This document shows, one piece after another, positions 3,224 to 9,878 of a DNA stretch of 64,000 nucleotides. This DNA comes from Escherichia coli (GTDB lineage Bacteria > Pseudomonadota > Gammaproteobacteria > Enterobacterales > Enterobacteriaceae). Location of the stretch: NCBI RefSeq assembly GCF_024700885.2, contig NZ_CP117016.1; one strand, written 5' to 3'. Numbering within the stretch: position 1 is the first letter of the stretch; every line of letters starts with the position of its first letter. The notes beneath the pieces are model-generated. The model saw only the letters and a list, made by a program, of their open reading frames with translations, did not search any database and was not told where the DNA came from. The translations under genes and the position numbers were made by a program.

Positions 3224-3418
3224 TTTTTGGTCCTTCTCTGGTGTTGTCTGGGAAGTGTAGAGCATGGCAGGGCGGGGTGCCTGGAGTGTGACAAAGGTTA
3301 CACATCGCTGTATGCAATGCTGAAAATTTCAGCACTTAGCGAGGTGCGAGCAAGCTGGCGCTTGCATGGTGGCGTGCGACAGGTATAATCCACAACGTTT
3401 TCCGCATACCTCTTCAGT

Positions 3419-3503
3419 GCCGAAGTGGCGAAATCGGTAGACGCAGTTGATTCAAAATCAACCGTAGAAATACGTGCCGGTTCGAGTCCGGCCTTCGGCA
3501 CCA
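3419..3503 (+). tRNA. leuX: tRNA-Leu (anticodon CAA)
   Basis: 85-nt sequence GCCGAAGTGG...TTCGAGTCCGGCCTTCGGCACCA with a CAA anticodon loop and long variable arm; genomic position after ahr. Confidence 0.9.
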
Positions 3504-4016
3504 AGTCACTAAATTCCTTACAATACAGGTAGTTAGACAATAAAATCTGTCTCTTTTGCCTGTAAGAAATGCTCTGTTATGTCCCTTGAAAAAGCCGCTG
3601 TGGTTGATAGTGGTAATTGGGATGTTAACTCATAGCGGCGTGTAGTTCCAAGCGTCAAACACGTACTGACTCAACTTGAAAGCTATGACGTAGCCACTGT
3701 CTCTAAACAATCCCAAAAACTTTTAGTGAAGCGCATTTTAGCCCGATGCCCCCGTTCTGCCGCTGTCGCGAGACGCCGCAGGGGATAAACAGGTTTATGG
3801 TGGTCACGGTACTTGCAGACCATATGCAAGCTCTGCCAGCGGTTCGGCCTCGCTCCCCTTGGGTACATGGTCATCCTGATAAGCCTCACTAACTGACATA
3901 ACTGTGATGTAGTCGCCAGAGGCTCCGCTTGTTGTCTTACCACCAACGGGGCTTTATGGATTCTATTGCGGTATGTTTGAAAGTGCGCGGGGGTTCATTC
4001 CCGCGCGTCCGGCGCT

Positions 4017-4931
4017 TTATGGTAAGTATTTAAGTATTTCTGCTGCCCAGTTTACACGGTGGATGACACGGGCATGGTGCAAGTTTCCGTCTAGTATTTC
4101 GGCTTTAGTTAGCTGGGATAACTGCTGCCAATTATTGTTAAGTATATAAGTTGCGTTATTACATTGTGAGCTTTCTAGCACGTAAATGTTTTGGCCTGTG
4201 AACCCAAATATCACGTAGCCTTGGAACCCAGCTTGCCCAACCGCTACGAAATCTGGTTTTTTACTATTGATAAGTTCAAGTCTGCCTTCAACAACAGCGG
4301 TATTGCCCTTTCCCCTGATCTTAATAGCTGAAAGGATTTTTGAGCCGATAGTACTCCAAGGCTGTTGACCCTGAGGCAGGAGGCTCCAGTTTAGTTTTAT
4401 AGATTTACTTTTAACGATGGTATTAAGTTGGTCGTCAACAGTTTCGCACAACCCAAAAAGCTCTAAAAAAAGATTAATGCAGTGAGCCACTAACTCTTTG
4501 TTGTTAGCTGTCAAACTTAGCTTTGGAGAGATGATCAACTTCTCCCCTTGAAGATTCTCTACAATCTTTAACTCTATGCTTGGTGGAGGGGTGAGGATTC
4601 TCTTGTAGCGCTTATACTCAATTTCACGAGTGTCAGTAACTTCTTGAGTTGCGCCCCCTCCGATCCATTGCTTTCTAGTCCATGAAATTTGTCTGTATGC
4701 AGTTTCTTTAGGTGCTGTTTTGTCAGGTACTGATTTGCCATTAGCATTGAATCTGGTTATTGGCCCTAAAATCTTGGGGAGGACTTCTTCACCTAAAGCT
4801 CTTTGACTTGAGAAACCAATAGAGTCCGTTTTCCCCGCATCTGGCAAAGAATGTGCAATGTAGATATCACGGCCATCAAAGTTAGGTATGTAATTATCAA
4901 TATTTCGAATACGCTTTTTCTGAATAAGCAT
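4017..4931 (-). CDS. Hypothetical protein, 304 aa, no family recognised
   Basis: Long ORF in AT-rich island DNA; no motif I can assign. Confidence 0.6.
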   Translation of the reverse strand: MLIQKKRIRNIDNYIPNFDGRDIYIAHSLPDAGKTDSIGFSSQRALGEEVLPKILGPITRFNANGKSVPDKTAPKETAYRQISWTRKQWIGGGATQEVTDTREIEYKRYKRILTPPPSIELKIVENLQGEKLIISPKLSLTANNKELVAHCINLFLELFGLCETVDDQLNTIVKSKSIKLNWSLLPQGQQPWSTIGSKILSAIKIRGKGNTAVVEGRLELINSKKPDFVAVGQAGFQGYVIFGFTGQNIYVLESSQCNNATYILNNNWQQLSQLTKAEILDGNLHHARVIHRVNWAAEILKYLP

Positions 4932-4994
4932 GGATCGTTCCTTTTGATTTTATCTTACTGTTTACATAACCAACCAAGCCGGGCACAATCGAGC

Positions 4995-5094
4995 CGTTAG
5001 AAACGATAGTGAGGCTAACAATCGTTATGAGTTTGCAGACTCATGGCGGTCATGCTTCATAGACCGGATTCACGCAGGTGACTCCGGTTTTTTT
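4995..5094 (+). ncRNA. Candidate small structured RNA with intrinsic terminator
   Basis: Three consecutive hairpins by eye (aacgat/atcgtt; atgagt/actcat; ccgga/tccgg) ending in a 7-T run at 5088-5094; possible sigma70-like promoter (tttaca-17 bp-cacaat) upstream. Confidence 0.3.
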
Positions 5095-5906
5095 ATGCCC
5101 ATCATTTATACATGAGCACAACATATAGGGTGTGTTAATAAGATTACCCCCTACATGTTCAGCATTCTAGTTAGGATTCTTTGCAGTACAAGGGGTGATT
5201 TTGAGGTTAAATTGAGGTTGTCAAAGGGAAATTTCGACCAACCCTACGTGCCGTAAGGCTTAGGCTGTATGTCAATGTTTCAGAAAAAAAATGAAAATTT
5301 GATCGAGTGCTGATTTCTTTAGCACGAGAACATGAGATCGAACCAAAATATTGCAAAGTTTTGAACAAAACTTGAGCTGCCTCGTGTCTCCATAGCCAAG
5401 ACGAATGCAGTTTAAATAAGCTAAGTCAGCTCTCAAAAGTCCTTTATGACCCGAACCAAAAATTGTACCTCTTAAACCCCCACCGCAAGCGGCTCTCCGG
5501 GGTTTGTGCGCGTGGAGTAATGCGATTGTACTGGGTATGTGCGCACAACCCTCTACAAGCCGCATTCTACCGTTAGCCTATAGCTGAATCCCCGGCTTGA
5601 AAAATTGCACGCTTATGGTTGCCCCTCCCTCAACTGTATAGCTCGCCCGCGCCCCCGTGCGCATGTGCGTGCCCGCGCGTCAGGGGTCGCTGAGAAAACC
5701 CTAAGATTTTGCTCATCCGAGACAACCGTTGCAGGCGCGCGTTGCCGGGGCACACTGTTAGTGTTTGATGGTGTCATCAATCGACCGTTTTCTGGCACCT
5801 CCCAATCGCACGCTTTCACACTGTTGGAAAAATAGCCTTGGCTTTTCTGGCAGGCCATCCTAATGTTGGCCTCGTTTTCTGGCAGGGGTCAGATGGGGAG
5901 ATAACA

Positions 5907-6467
5907 ATGGCAACTTTTGGCTACGGACGTGTTTCGACATCGCAGCAGGATACTGAGAACCAACGGCTGGAGCTTGGGCAGGCTGGGTGGCAAATTGATT
6001 ACTGGTTTGCCGATGTTGTTAGCGGGAAGGTTCCGGCAATGCAACGTAAAGCATTTTCTGAAATGCTCAATAAAATCCGCGATGGTGAAACGTTGGTGGT
6101 AGCGAAGCTTGATCGTCTGGGGCGTGATGCGATTGACGTCCTGCAAACGGTAAGGGCGCTGGCTGACCGTAATATCAAGGTTCTTGTCCACCAGCTTGGT
6201 AACACAGATCTCACTTCTGCCGCTGGGAAGTTGCTATTATCTATGCTCGCCGCGGTTGCGGAGATGGAGCGTGATCTGCTGATTGAGCGCACTCAGGCGG
6301 GACTATCACGAGCAAAAGCCGAAGGTAAGAAATTGGGCAGACCTCCTAAAATCGCGTCAGAAGCCCGTAGAGAGATTTTAGAGAAAAAGAATAGCGGTTT
6401 GAGTATCAGTGCGTTAGCGCGTCAATATGGCGTTTCAAGAGCGACTGTAGCAGCTATTACCGATTGA
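5907..6467 (+). CDS. Small serine recombinase (resolvase/invertase family)
   Basis: N-terminal GYGRVSTSQQ catalytic-serine motif and C-terminal HTH (LSISALARQYGVSRATV); start at MATFGYGRVS with SD ggggag. Confidence 0.85.
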   Translation: MATFGYGRVSTSQQDTENQRLELGQAGWQIDYWFADVVSGKVPAMQRKAFSEMLNKIRDGETLVVAKLDRLGRDAIDVLQTVRALADRNIKVLVHQLGNTDLTSAAGKLLLSMLAAVAEMERDLLIERTQAGLSRAKAEGKKLGRPPKIASEARREILEKKNSGLSISALARQYGVSRATVAAITD

Positions 6468-6480
6468 ATATGGAGAGTTT

Positions 6481-7326
6481 ATGGCTTACACAGCAACTGT
6501 TATCCCTGTAATGATTGCTTCTCCTGGTGATGTCGCTGAAGAGAGACAAGTCATTCGTGAAATGATCCATGAGTGGAATGATATAAATTCAGCTCGTTCA
6601 AAAGTAATGTTGACACCAATTGGATGGGAAACTCATACATCACCCGAATTAGGAGTTAGGCCTCAGAAGTTGATTAATCAAAGATTATTAGTAGATTGTG
6701 ATTTATTAATCGGTGTGTTTTGGACTCGTCTAGGCTCACCGACTGGGAACGAGGCCAGCGGAACAGTCGAAGAAATCCACCGTCATTTGAATGCGGGAAA
6801 ACCGGCAATGATTTACTTTTCCTCAAAGCCTGTTGCCCCTGAAAGCCTTGATAGAGAACAATATGAGTCTCTTAAATTGTTCAAAACTGAGTGCATGCAA
6901 AAGGGATTGATAGAGTCTTTTAATGACTTATCTGATTTCAAAGACAAAGTCCGTAGGCAACTTTCGATAATTATTTCTAGTAGCCCTTATTTGTCTTCTC
7001 TTATATCTACCATTAACAATTCTCCTGATGCGAATACAAGTCAATCTTTGCCAGAAAGTAATTTGTCCGCCGATGCACTCAGTTTGCTGAAATTGGCATG
7101 TGTCGATGATAGCGGAACAATTTATGTGATAAGGCATTTAGGTGGCACGGATATTCAAGCGGGAAATCAATCCTTTGGTGGAAGTTCGGCTAGAGAGGTA
7201 GCCCGTTGGGAGGGCGCACTTAACGAACTGTTATCCTTTGATTATGTGATTGAAAGAGGGGCAAAAGGACAAATGTATTATGTTACTCATAAAGGCTGGA
7301 CATTTCTTGAATCTTTAAATGAATAA
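6481..7326 (+). CDS. Hypothetical protein, 281 aa; N-terminal motif resembles DUF4062/TIR-like domains (tentative)
   Basis: Starts 13 bp after the recombinase stop with its own SD (ggagag); N-terminus VMIASPGDVAEERQVI fits a strand-SxxD-x-EER pattern; C-terminal half unassigned. Confidence 0.6.
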   Translation: MAYTATVIPVMIASPGDVAEERQVIREMIHEWNDINSARSKVMLTPIGWETHTSPELGVRPQKLINQRLLVDCDLLIGVFWTRLGSPTGNEASGTVEEIHRHLNAGKPAMIYFSSKPVAPESLDREQYESLKLFKTECMQKGLIESFNDLSDFKDKVRRQLSIIISSSPYLSSLISTINNSPDANTSQSLPESNLSADALSLLKLACVDDSGTIYVIRHLGGTDIQAGNQSFGGSSAREVARWEGALNELLSFDYVIERGAKGQMYYVTHKGWTFLESLNE

Positions 7327-7386
7327 TTAAATGCGAGGCCATTACATAAGTTTATTTTTGATGTGAGGGTGAATTCCCTCACATTT

Positions 7387-7881
7387 TTATTCGAAAGAGG
7401 CCGCAATGACTTCTCCTGTTTTTGCGTTGAAAACACAAAAGTATTGAAGCGGAGCTAGCATCCCCAAGCCGTTAACTACCTTAGCTTGTTGCCCAAATGC
7501 CTGAATAATCTTCGCATTCTCATCGTGCCAGAGATAAGTATTAAATACAGGCGCTTCGCTTTCTTGCCACACATGGCGAAACTTCGCTTTCTCATCCATT
7601 ACCTTTTTGCACTCCCTGACCGGGTTATGGTGCGTTTTCGCATAGCATTCCGGGTTGTCATCTGCACATACGATATCTTTTCGTGCTGTCTGATGCTCAG
7701 CACCTACAGCAGAAAAGGCGCATACGCCCAGCACCAATGAGAGAGTGCCCAGAGCACCCCATACAGTTGCGCGTAGCGTGCTGATGTGCTGCTTTGATAC
7801 AGCATGGGCAACTACACTATAACTGGCCCAGCTAATCGCGGCTCCCGCTGCAATCGGTAGTAAAAAGTCTGCTCCCGTCAT
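7387..7881 (-). CDS. Hypothetical membrane protein (two predicted TM helices plus Cys-containing soluble domain)
   Basis: ORF with hydrophobic N-terminal segments; start set at MTGADFLL with SD gaggga. Confidence 0.5.
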   Translation of the reverse strand: MTGADFLLPIAAGAAISWASYSVVAHAVSKQHISTLRATVWGALGTLSLVLGVCAFSAVGAEHQTARKDIVCADDNPECYAKTHHNPVRECKKVMDEKAKFRHVWQESEAPVFNTYLWHDENAKIIQAFGQQAKVVNGLGMLAPLQYFCVFNAKTGEVIAASFE

Positions 7882-8121
7882 GATTCCCTCACTTTCCAAA
7901 CCACATCGCGCCTGATAGCGAACGCTGGTGACGCCCAACCGATGATGATCATCATACTTGTTGGGTTTTAAATGTCACCATTGGTGTTTGTTTTGAATCA
8001 AAAAGGATTGTCATGATACAGCCGATGAATGCTAGTGACTAAGCTCGCTGACGTGAGATTGGATTCAAAATATCTCATATGGAGCGTGGCCTTACAGTGG
8101 TCAAAATTGCACATTCAGTGC

Positions 8122-8586
8122 ATGAAAAAATCCCTGAGAATACAGTTTGGCGAGCGGGTAAAAGAACTGCGCATTGCCACCGGATTGAGCCAGGAGGCCT
8201 TTGCCGATCGGTGCGGGTTTGCACGTAGTTATATGAGCAGAATTGAACGTGGTGGCTCTAATGCGTCTCTGGATGCGATTGAGGTGCTGGCTAACGCTCT
8301 GAGCGTTGAGCCGTGGCAGTTGTTAGCGCCTGGCCCATCTGAAGATAACGACTCGGAACTGTTGGTTCCATACGCAGCCGATGGTTCCTGTTTTCACCCC
8401 GGTTTGGCGAGCACCCGTGATGGCTCGTTTGGCGTAGGTGATAAAGCGGCTCAGAAGCGTTTTGGCACGTTTGCTGAAGCTCTTGAGTATCTTCGTAGCA
8501 TGGAGACAGCAAAATGGCGTAGGCCTAATCCTAGCGGCAACTGGGGTATCGTATCAGCGGTTCGGTGGGACAAACTGAGAAAGTAG
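8122..8586 (+). CDS. XRE-family HTH transcriptional regulator with unassigned C-terminal domain
   Basis: N-terminal HTH (LRIATGLSQEAFADRCGFARSYMSRIERG); start at MKKSLRIQ. Confidence 0.6.
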   Translation: MKKSLRIQFGERVKELRIATGLSQEAFADRCGFARSYMSRIERGGSNASLDAIEVLANALSVEPWQLLAPGPSEDNDSELLVPYAADGSCFHPGLASTRDGSFGVGDKAAQKRFGTFAEALEYLRSMETAKWRRPNPSGNWGIVSAVRWDKLRK

Positions 8587-9076
8587 CTCAAGTGTAAGTT
8601 TATGAATTTTCATGCTGTATGGATGAACAGTATTCATTAGATGCTGATAGTCTTATGTTTCATCAGCCCTTTGTTTCTATAAGAGTGAATAAAACAGCAA
8701 AATGCGGGTGCGTTACGTAGGCGTTACGGTGGCGTTTCGCTTTGGCTCTTAATGGCTTAATTCATATAAATAACATTGAGTTAAATAGTTATTCTGAACA
8801 AGGTCTGCCGGGGTCTAACTGGTTTCAAAATCCGAACGCAGTGGCGTTTATTCAACGTCCACATAGCTGACAAATGTTCTTTCCTCCCGACTCGGCAGAC
8901 CTCCAGAAACATTAAAAGGCAGGTATGGCACGTTGATGTTTTATGCCGCCACGAACACTCGGTTTGATTCCGTCCAGCGGATCAAACTTAATATGTAGCC
9001 CCTAGAACAAAAAGGTCCTACGATTGCTCTCTTAACAGCTAACAGGAACGTGATTACAGCAGGTTATAGAGACTTA

Positions 9077-9101
9077 GGTTCGAGTCCGGCCTTCGGCACC
9101 A
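9077..9101 (+). repeat. Direct repeat of leuX 3' end (att core copy)
   Basis: 25/25 identity to 3479-3503. Confidence 0.85.
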
Positions 9102-9115
9102 AAAGTATGTAAATA

Positions 9116-9287: not shown

Positions 9288-9878
9288 ATGGCATTAACAG
9301 ATATCAAAGTCAGAGCAGCCAAGCCAACGGATAAGCAATATAAGCTGACTGATGGTGGCGGTATGCATCTGCTTGTCCATCCAAATGGTTCTAAGTACTG
9401 GCGTTTGCAGTACCGTTATGAGGGAAAGCAAAAAATGCTGGCACTTGGGGTTTATCCTGAAATCACACTAGCGGATGCCAGAGTACGTCGTGACGAGGCG
9501 CGTAAGCTGCTTGCGAATGGCGTCGATCCGGGAGACAAAAAGAAAAATGATAAGGTTGAACAGAGTAAAGCACGAACCTTTAAAGAAGTCGCGATTGAGT
9601 GGCATGGCACCAATAAAAAGTGGTCTGAAGATCACGCCCATCGTGTGCTAAAAAGTCTTGAAGATAATCTTTTTGCAGCGCTTGGTGAACGTAATATCGC
9701 TGAGTTAAAAACTCGAGATTTATTAGCACCTATTGTTCCTTTAACCATCCGCAATGGCCAACGGTTTACAGAGCATAATACGAATAGCCGTAGAGCCAGC
9801 CAGTTACGGTGGTCGCGATGGTGTGTCCGCCAGAAAATCACCACGAATACCAGAATCGCGGCACTGACCAGAAAATGA
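9288..9878 (+). pseudogene. P4-type tyrosine integrase (IntB-like), N-terminal ~150 aa only
   Basis: MALTD.KVRAAKPTDK...YWRLQYRYEGKQKMLALGVYPE matches the P4-integrase N-terminal arm; similarity is lost near 9740 and the catalytic domain is absent. Confidence 0.75.

Follow-up and report, generated by a model that had tools for sequence, protein, structure and literature searches.

The window analysed here is a stretch of 64,000 nucleotides of Escherichia coli DNA (RefSeq assembly GCF_024700885.2, contig NZ_CP117016.1). Near its beginning lies the tRNA-Leu(CAA) gene leuX (3419-3503, plus strand; called by ARAGORN, by Rfam as a tRNA with 59.4 bits, and by RefSeq), which is the attachment (att) site of a genomic island. 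At a distance of 513 bp from leuX an open reading frame (ORF) on the minus strand, running from ATG to stop at 4017-4931, codes for a protein of 304 amino acids (aa) that RefSeq lists as the hypothetical protein WP_000908169.1. We describe this gene, the island slot in which it sits and the structured leader in front of it, and we tentatively suggest that the gene is mobile cargo with a role in defence.

A preliminary description had presented the gene as an AT-rich orphan. The ORF is real according to both the ORF listing and the RefSeq annotation, and its base composition is indeed unusual: G+C is 41.1% over the whole ORF and 38.7% at third codon positions, compared with 52-56% for the core genes on either side. 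Compared with its enterobacterial relatives, the proportion of non-synonymous differences (pN) is 0.12-0.15 and that of synonymous differences (pS) is 0.75-0.81, the synonymous sites being saturated. Because non-synonymous differences amount to only 12-15% and synonymous ones to 75-81%, the gene is under strong purifying selection, and these data refute the reading as a spurious ORF. A GC-rich hairpin read from the sequence follows directly after the stop codon (3985-4007, minus strand). It is a possible terminator with a weak U tract; the terminator scan made no call there.

The label of an orphan has to be given up. One search of a database clustered at 90% returned 722 homologues, and the family comprises 1,311 clusters at 50% identity. 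It is found in 135 of 100,044 species genomes, once per genome, and its members come from Proteobacteria, Firmicutes, Bacteroidota, Actinomycetota, Acidobacteria, Planctomycetes, Verrucomicrobia, the candidate phyla radiation (CPR/Patescibacteria) and Euryarchaeota. The members are uniformly about 300-315 aa long with a single domain architecture, and share 35-47% identity across phyla. Apparent domain fusions in longer homologues were dismissed, the N-terminal extensions being mis-called starts. An alignment of 54 diverse members has 34 invariant columns. They are packed most tightly in the last third of the protein (R217, P226, G232, G235-F236, G238-Y239, E253, N259-A-T-Y262, W268, S272, K276, R288, H291 and W295); conserved residues of the N-terminal domain are E76, R108, E120, H150 and E157. 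The family is widespread, though thinly spread, over bacteria and archaea and has no prior characterisation; a full-text literature search with the accession WP_000908169.1 found nothing.

With a pI of 9.4 the protein is basic, and it lacks transmembrane segments, the maximum Kyte-Doolittle score (window 19) being 1.55. It appears to be cytoplasmic, with a beta-rich N-terminal domain of residues 1-175 or so and a C-terminal alpha/beta domain of about residues 180-304. An AlphaFold2 model made with the family alignment reached a mean pLDDT (predicted local distance difference test) of 90 and a pTM (predicted template modelling score) of 0.54; it shows two well-defined domains whose mutual orientation is uncertain, the C-terminal one with the topology alpha-beta4-alpha-beta-alpha. 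The model has no strong structural neighbour. A Foldseek search against AFDB50 retrieved family members only, three of which carry the submitter label "Restriction endonuclease". By sequence, the protein matched nothing in Pfam, NCBIfam, PADLOC (PADLOC-DB v2.0, 2023), PHROG or the PDB sequences, nor did Pfam match any of the 54 diverse members. Specifically, Pfam and NCBIfam found no Phage_integrase domain with its R-H-R-Y residues in the query or the 54 homologues, and the fold neighbours are unrelated to it; a resolvase/invertase domain is absent from the protein, whereas the neighbouring gene at 5907-6467 does match; and no nuclease domain of the PD-(D/E)xK, HNH, GIY-YIG or PLD type was found. 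The earlier statement that the protein lacks recombinase or other catalytic motifs therefore holds for every library searched, and no confident match to an integrase, an excisionase or a metabolic enzyme family emerged.

The only recurrent weak match was to the PADLOC model of ZorC with its "EH signature". It was seen in 5 of 20 diverse members with 12-15 bits (E = 0.002-0.014), and always aligned the protein at about residues 245-308 to the profile at about 385-450. ZorC needs a Glu/His network, the EH signature, for DNA binding. When the C-terminal sub-alignment was compared by hhalign with a ZorC alignment built from zorC of E. coli E24377A, the probability was only 0.5%; in this alignment E253 falls on Glu400 of the EH motif, and "LES....NATY" is paired with "VEFSGTGNAMY" of ZorC, NA(T/M)Y being common to both. 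The Glu and His are 38 residues apart in the 304-aa protein and 43 in ZorC. R217, E253, R288, H291 and W295, all invariant in the family, are candidates for a ZorC-like Glu/His network accompanied by Arg and Trp; the profile comparisons are not significant. Moreover, a family hidden Markov model scored E. coli ZorC no better than shuffled controls, and Pfam found no EH signature (PF15611) in the 54 members. There are also clear differences. ZorC of type I Zorya (PF15611) has 560 aa against 304 here, and its core and its C-terminal globular domain are missing from our protein; zorA, zorB and zorD never adjoin the family genes in the 93 loci surveyed (see below), and the window has no ZorA/ZorB motor genes. 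We take the weak resemblance of the C-terminal domain to the ZorC EH signature domain as the best lead available and consider it somewhat more probable than not, but it falls short of established membership. Weak PADLOC matches to HORMA in 3 of the 20 members have no structural support, and this identity was rejected.

The surroundings of the gene bear out its position next to an att site. The 3' end of the tRNA forms an attL-type repeat of 26 nt (3479-3504, plus strand) that is an exact direct repeat of an attR-type copy at 9077-9102 (plus strand), after which the next island begins to show with a P4-type integrase in truncated form (9288-9749). The two repeats enclose positions 3505-9102, and there is no integrase inside. 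A degenerate third copy of the repeat (69%) is present at 8961-8986, 116 nt ahead of the copy at 9077-9102, and may be a remnant att site that stems from one more island or from a different tRNA. The window is chromosomal, with the gene order lptG-yjgR-ahr-leuX, and its region 3400-6500 is 100% identical to that of ST648-type strains.

Comparison with other islands divides this segment into blocks. The tRNA-proximal non-coding arm (3505-3969) is the left border of a cargo slot and is 96-98% identical in E. coli islands with other cargo; its positions 3594-3968 are found 69-83% identical downstream of different cargos. Copies of the arm in other enterobacterial contigs adjoin tRNA-Leu, tRNA-Thr(CGT) or tRNA-Gly(CCC). 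A search by tblastn of 3505-4016 for an integrase remnant, using the integrase of contig L114 (contigs and loci of our survey carry the letter L), found nothing. Next comes the cargo segment of 1.8 kb (3970-5774, minus strand), which consists of the gene, its leader and a strain-specific spacer and is delimited by homology breakpoints at 3969 and 5775 relative to strain E94. Only about 80-96 of 5,426 complete E. coli genomes carry it; in the same set of genomes the arm is common, and so is the recombinase block (5775-9076). The spacer together with the promoter region of the recombinase (5321-5906) contains mosaic junctions at 5475-5783, with homology ending at different points in E94, EC09 and 25a. 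An integron-like cassette was considered and rejected, since attC-like and core sites are absent and the breakpoints vary between strains (5475-5637, 5588-5783, 5775).

Other strains fill the slot differently. In EC09 and 25a it is taken up by other cargos of three genes each, in which one DUF3800 protein matches the PADLOC candidate PDC-M04A. In E94 the order is tRNA-Leu, a 636-aa integrase, other genes with the recombinase block, the 26-mer, the arm and an AbiJ-NTD4 gene (NZ_CP119740.1, 4524994-4534371), so that recombinase block and arm stand around the 26-mer in the order opposite to that of the window. Because E94 shows the blocks in this opposite order, the window's element, which has no integrase of its own, must be a chimera derived from tandem islands, with the 304-aa gene as exchangeable cargo. 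The preliminary description had remarked that the gene sits where an integrase would be expected. As to position this is correct: sister islands have an integrase of 636 aa, or of 454 aa and P4 type in contigs L098 and L114, between tRNA/att and cargo, and there is none here. But the 304-aa protein is no substitute for it, since the family occurs in unrelated places and the slot holds other cargo elsewhere. With the P4-type tyrosine integrases (IntB at leuX) it shares the location directly downstream of the tRNA attachment site; it differs from them in its opposite orientation, in lacking the Phage_integrase domain and R-H-R-Y, and in its unrelated fold. The truncated gene at 9288, a separate one, is IntB-like.

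Conserved borders with swapped cargo, here the arm on one side and the leader or recombinase block on the other, are also the mark of the defence hotspots of integrative islands and P2/P4-type prophages. What distinguishes this slot from the known hotspots is that one border appears to be an expression cassette, consisting of promoter, leader and antisense RNA, which incoming cargo reuses. In strain X14-3 (L135) the locus is disrupted: the insertion sequence (IS) IS3 interrupts the 304-aa gene (window 4250-4255) and IS1 cuts the leader (5005). These insertions fit a dispensable or costly gene. A truncated phosphorothioate-dependent restriction gene lies near the disrupted locus.

Upstream of the gene the preliminary description had noted a non-coding region of about 900 bp. 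We also find no credible ORF up to the serine recombinase gene; the region is not featureless, however, as about 390 nt are conserved together with the gene and their core is more conserved than the coding sequence. Homology with the copies in Pectobacterium, Enterobacter and Serratia reaches 160-390 nt upstream of the ATG. The proximal 390 nt or so consist of a conserved promoter and a leader of about 226 nt. Over the 144-nt leader core the sequences are 79-85% identical, compared with 71-73% in the coding sequence, where synonymous sites are saturated.

A degenerate pattern of 22 nt taken from the leader core identified 38 metagenomic or viral contigs. In 11 of the 38 the same region of about 270 nt, up to the motif TGTAAAC, precedes a different operon, which codes for an 88-aa Cys-rich protein and a 340-353-aa DUF4062 protein, or in one case for a 147-aa protein. 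Because the same region stands before a different operon in these 11 contigs, the leader is, judged by its distribution, a reusable expression cassette. Examples of the leader with other cargo are L098 (1969-3304), L114, L117, L101 and L134 (6391-6657); the 88-aa protein reads MTICYKQHRY...GRHKCCGCAY... None of the 88-aa, DUF4062-type and 147-aa cargo proteins has a PADLOC match, and the operon of the 88-aa and DUF4062 proteins is a candidate for a second uncharacterised system. A covariance model of the leader core matched the window at 4955-5098 with 165 bits and otherwise only Enterobacterales cassettes; it gave no match near distant members of the family, nor in any other part of the window. 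By blastn no copy of the leader was found in the phage and plasmid collections.

The leader would start from promoter-like hexamers, TTGTAC-16 nt-TAGAAT (5164-5191, minus strand), that are conserved across cassettes and would place the transcription start near 5157, giving a 5' untranslated region of about 226 nt. Farther upstream a conserved block (5192-5320, minus strand), which aligns at about 73% with the Pectobacterium and Enterobacter cassettes, is a possible regulator-binding region; inspection by eye upstream of the promoter revealed neither a P2 Ogr/Delta-type site (TGT-N12-ACA) nor a LexA box. The small serine and tyrosine recombinases next door prompted the idea of an invertible-promoter switch. 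It was rejected: there are no consistent flanking inverted repeats, and the orientation is the same in 42 distinct loci. A leader peptide was discarded too, as any of the four bases can stand at its candidate start, depending on the cassette.

On the sense strand the leader is predicted to begin with two hairpins with variable loops (5122-5157 and 5096-5121, minus strand), the first of which shows compensatory changes (GC/AU and UA/GC); in hairpin 3 alternative complementary stems are seen among the sequences. Between these 5' hairpins and a three-way junction there is an invariant A7 run and then a hairpin. The three-way junction (4964-5055, 92 nt, minus strand), in which the long-range stem P1 encloses two or three hairpins, was obtained with RNAalifold from 20 distinct sequences. 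It has 97.2% of the cells paired and a covariation of 0.160; none of 500 shuffles reached either value, and slid controls pair to about 30%. The P1 stem relies on G.U pairs that exist on the sense strand only.

The opposite strand carries signals of its own. A promoter scan detected an antisense promoter, TTTACA-17 nt-CACAAT (4961-4989, plus strand), whose hexamers are invariant or nearly so though largely unpaired in the sense structure. From it a cis-antisense small RNA of about 100 nt (4996-5094, plus strand) is predicted, ending at an intrinsic terminator with a stem at 5061-5087 and a T7 run at 5088-5094. Its predicted fold has a minimum free energy of -42.2 kcal/mol (z = -5.8), and the terminator helix of 12 bp is 96.6% paired, shows covariation and contains G.U pairs specific to the plus strand. 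Rfam has no family for the leader or the antisense RNA; the best scores stay below threshold (potC 22.8 bits against a gathering score of 44, SdsR/RyeB 15.8 against 38) and cover hairpin or terminator parts. A tRNA-like reading of the hairpin AUGAGU-cugcaa-ACUCAU was dropped, with nothing reported by ARAGORN or Rfam. On this comparative evidence the leader is a conserved, structured and doubly constrained RNA region common to several cargos, and it would be more conserved than the ORF because both the sense structure and the antisense gene constrain it.

Long structured 5' leaders with a nested antisense gene are familiar from cis-antisense systems such as the type I toxin-antitoxin (TA) module hok/sok, IS10 RNA-IN/OUT and CopA/CopT of R1, and as in the hok/sok-type leaders the nested gene here has a predicted promoter and intrinsic terminator of its own. 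In contrast to these, the cargo is large, soluble and interchangeable, the antisense RNA does not lie over the ribosome-binding site, there is no leader ORF, and there is no Rfam match.

We then looked at the genomic context of the family elsewhere. When the 1,320 ORFs around the family gene in 93 loci were clustered all against all, no conserved partner gene emerged. Neighbours of the AbiLi-like ATPase and DUF2188 kinds are confined to one Lachnospiraceae element of gut Firmicutes (L047-L052, L057, L068, L075), in which the AbiLi-like AAA ATPase (PADLOC E = 3e-73) is upstream and a 74-aa DUF2188 protein is 0-5 bp downstream of the family gene. Two loci unrelated to this element, L005 and L094, likewise have DUF2188 directly beside the family gene. 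Neighbours scored by PADLOC include type I restriction-modification (RM) systems in 6-7 loci as well as GajA of Gabija, DpdF of Dpd, the AbiLi-like ATPase, SIR2 and a BilD-like E1. By Pfam, a Methanobacterium locus has SIR2 with HATPase and an integrase, a Kosmotoga locus a methylase with a helicase, and a contig resembling an integrative and conjugative element (ICE) a reverse transcriptase, a relaxase and a helicase-methylase. In Proteus the family gene occupies the gpS-gpV interval of a P2-like prophage, a known moron or defence site, and in Serratia it is located at a prophage end beside tRNA-Gly. Sequenced phage genomes nearly lack the family (1 match in 50,697 records).

Plasmids of 8.6-14 kb also carry the gene (Acinetobacter, 8.6 kb; Latilactobacillus, 11.5 kb; Lactococcus cremoris SK11 plasmid 5). 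On the L. cremoris plasmid (L141, 4299-9910) it follows by 18 bp a gene for a 1,560-aa DEAD/DEAH helicase in the main operon of the replicon. The size of this helicase recalls the single-polypeptide type ISP restriction enzymes. No methyltransferase is found in the 5.6-kb element of the window or on the 8.6-14 kb plasmids with the family gene.

The gene is constrained, autonomous and horizontally mobile, and it occupies a variable island slot. We suggest that it is self-contained mobile cargo and not integration machinery, and that a single-protein factor of defence against phages or other mobile genetic elements is its most likely role, although we hold this only with reserve. Several lines of evidence point this way: the breadth and constraint of the family, the lack of a conserved neighbour together with defence-type neighbours, the positions in prophages and on plasmids, the exchangeable cargo of the slot (DUF3800/PDC-M04A, AbiJ-NTD4), and a basic protein without a transmembrane segment. 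The leader, which is more conserved than the coding sequence, reused and apparently structured on both strands, and the IS inactivation in X14-3 are in line with it. Some observations weigh against a defence role. PADLOC-DB v2.0 has no family matching the protein at E <= 0.01, most of the alternative cargos of the slot are uncharacterised too, and several family loci have ordinary neighbours, so that the defence-island context is circumstantial. As to the expression cassette, the sense promoter has a poor -35 hexamer and is below the threshold of the promoter scan, and the ribosome-binding site is left free by the antisense RNA.

Among other explanations, a solitary restriction endonuclease that cuts foreign DNA, modification-dependent (type IV-like) or otherwise without a cognate methyltransferase, seems unlikely but deserves first mention, being a narrower form of the defence reading. 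The name that submitters gave to three AFDB homologues would fit, as would a gene that is always alone, without a methyltransferase on the small plasmids, that often has RM genes of type I, type ISP or a III-like kind nearby, and that codes for invariant acidic, Lys and His residues. Solitary and type IV restriction endonucleases are likewise stand-alone genes without a methyltransferase in neighbourhoods rich in RM genes; the nuclease or modified-base-reader domain which they possess is not detected here by sequence or fold, and the lack of any nuclease signature speaks against this explanation.

It is rather improbable that the protein serves the element itself, be it in anti-defence, in superinfection exclusion or as a DNA-handling accessory of prophages, plasmids and ICEs. 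Its occurrence in prophages and on ICE-like contigs that also code for relaxases and large helicase-methylases, as well as its basic character and possible DNA-binding domain, could be so understood. Yet the family is not tied to one element type or to replication, transfer or packaging modules, it is also present in defence islands on the chromosomes of archaea and of CPR bacteria, and it is nearly absent from sequenced phage genomes, with the single match noted above.

We give slightly less credit still to the toxin of an antisense-RNA-controlled (type I-like) addiction module that stabilises the island or plasmid. The predicted cis-antisense RNA gene inside the leader suggests such a module, small plasmids carry the gene beside other TA modules, and IS-disrupted and truncated copies exist in E. 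coli. But leader and antisense RNA also precede the unrelated 88-aa and DUF4062 cargo, so the RNA is not specific for the protein; distant family members have neither the leader nor a conserved partner; and a soluble two-domain protein of 304 aa is unlike the type I toxins, which are small (<60 aa) and hydrophobic. Finally, the location of the gene would suggest that the tRNA-integrated element uses it as a new kind of integrase, as an excision factor or for transposition. This is scarcely credible, as there is no recombinase motif or family match, homologues occur once per genome and far from att sites (in a P2-like late operon, on small plasmids), sister islands have conventional integrases besides the cargo slot, and other strains have unrelated genes in the slot; as far as genome comparison can tell, the distribution of the family essentially refutes a recombination role.

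For the defence role we propose the following steps. In Enterobacterales, a sigma-70-type promoter would give rise to the leader of about 226 nt with its two 5' hairpins and three-way junction. The antisense RNA of about 100 nt, made from inside the leader, could hold expression of the cargo down. Protein synthesis might be released once the antisense RNA is lost, or once the leader is remodelled because host transcription is perturbed, for example by infection. The C-terminal alpha/beta domain would then bind DNA in an EH-like manner through R217, E253, NATY(259-262), R288 and H291, and the N-terminal domain (E76, R108, E120, H150, E157) may sense the invading DNA or act on it. The net effect would be defence against phages or other mobile DNA. 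A bolder proposal goes further, and we consider it doubtful: the family could be a new single-gene immune system, a minimal relative of the ZorC module without a membrane motor, and the leader a new plug-and-play RNA cassette that gates defence cargo in enterobacterial tRNA islands, with loss of the antisense RNA perhaps sensing infection.

If these suggestions are confirmed, an unannotated family of more than 1,000 clusters could be given a function, probably that of a compact defence made of one protein, and a minimal and tractable model would become available for the EH-signature domain of Zorya, which is poorly understood. Likewise, the cassette of leader and antisense RNA would be a new family of regulatory RNAs. 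The leader alone could then mark cargo slots and so expose accessory or defence genes beside Enterobacterales tRNA genes, the 88-aa Cys-rich protein with its DUF4062 partner being an example. For annotation it means that the att-adjacent gene in this island is cargo and not recombination machinery.

The remainder of the window contains further genes of interest. Divergent from the 304-aa gene is the small serine recombinase of the invertase/resolvase type (5907-6467, plus strand; NCBIfam, PHROG and RefSeq), with its annotated start at 5907 and an alternative TTG at 5838. Beside it a 281-aa protein (6481-7326, plus strand), called DUF4062 in some RefSeq records, matches PADLOC PDC-S60 with its N-terminal 160 residues (E = 1e-26) and is probably another defence-type gene of the island. 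A helix-turn-helix protein (8029-8586, plus strand) resembles the "control" (C) proteins of RM systems (PADLOC E = 2e-18), with no RM system beside it; next to its gene, a protein of 164-183 aa (7387-7938, minus strand) matches phrog_20749 of unknown function (E = 8e-102). From about position 9300 to 64000 the window is a typical mosaic leuX pathogenicity/fitness island with many IS fragments (IS66, IS100, IS110, IS3 and IS1). Besides sugar-utilisation modules it contains lpxM and virK as pseudogenes, and it codes for an Ag43 autotransporter, for an antirestriction protein and for the toxin-antitoxin pair YeeU/CbtA.

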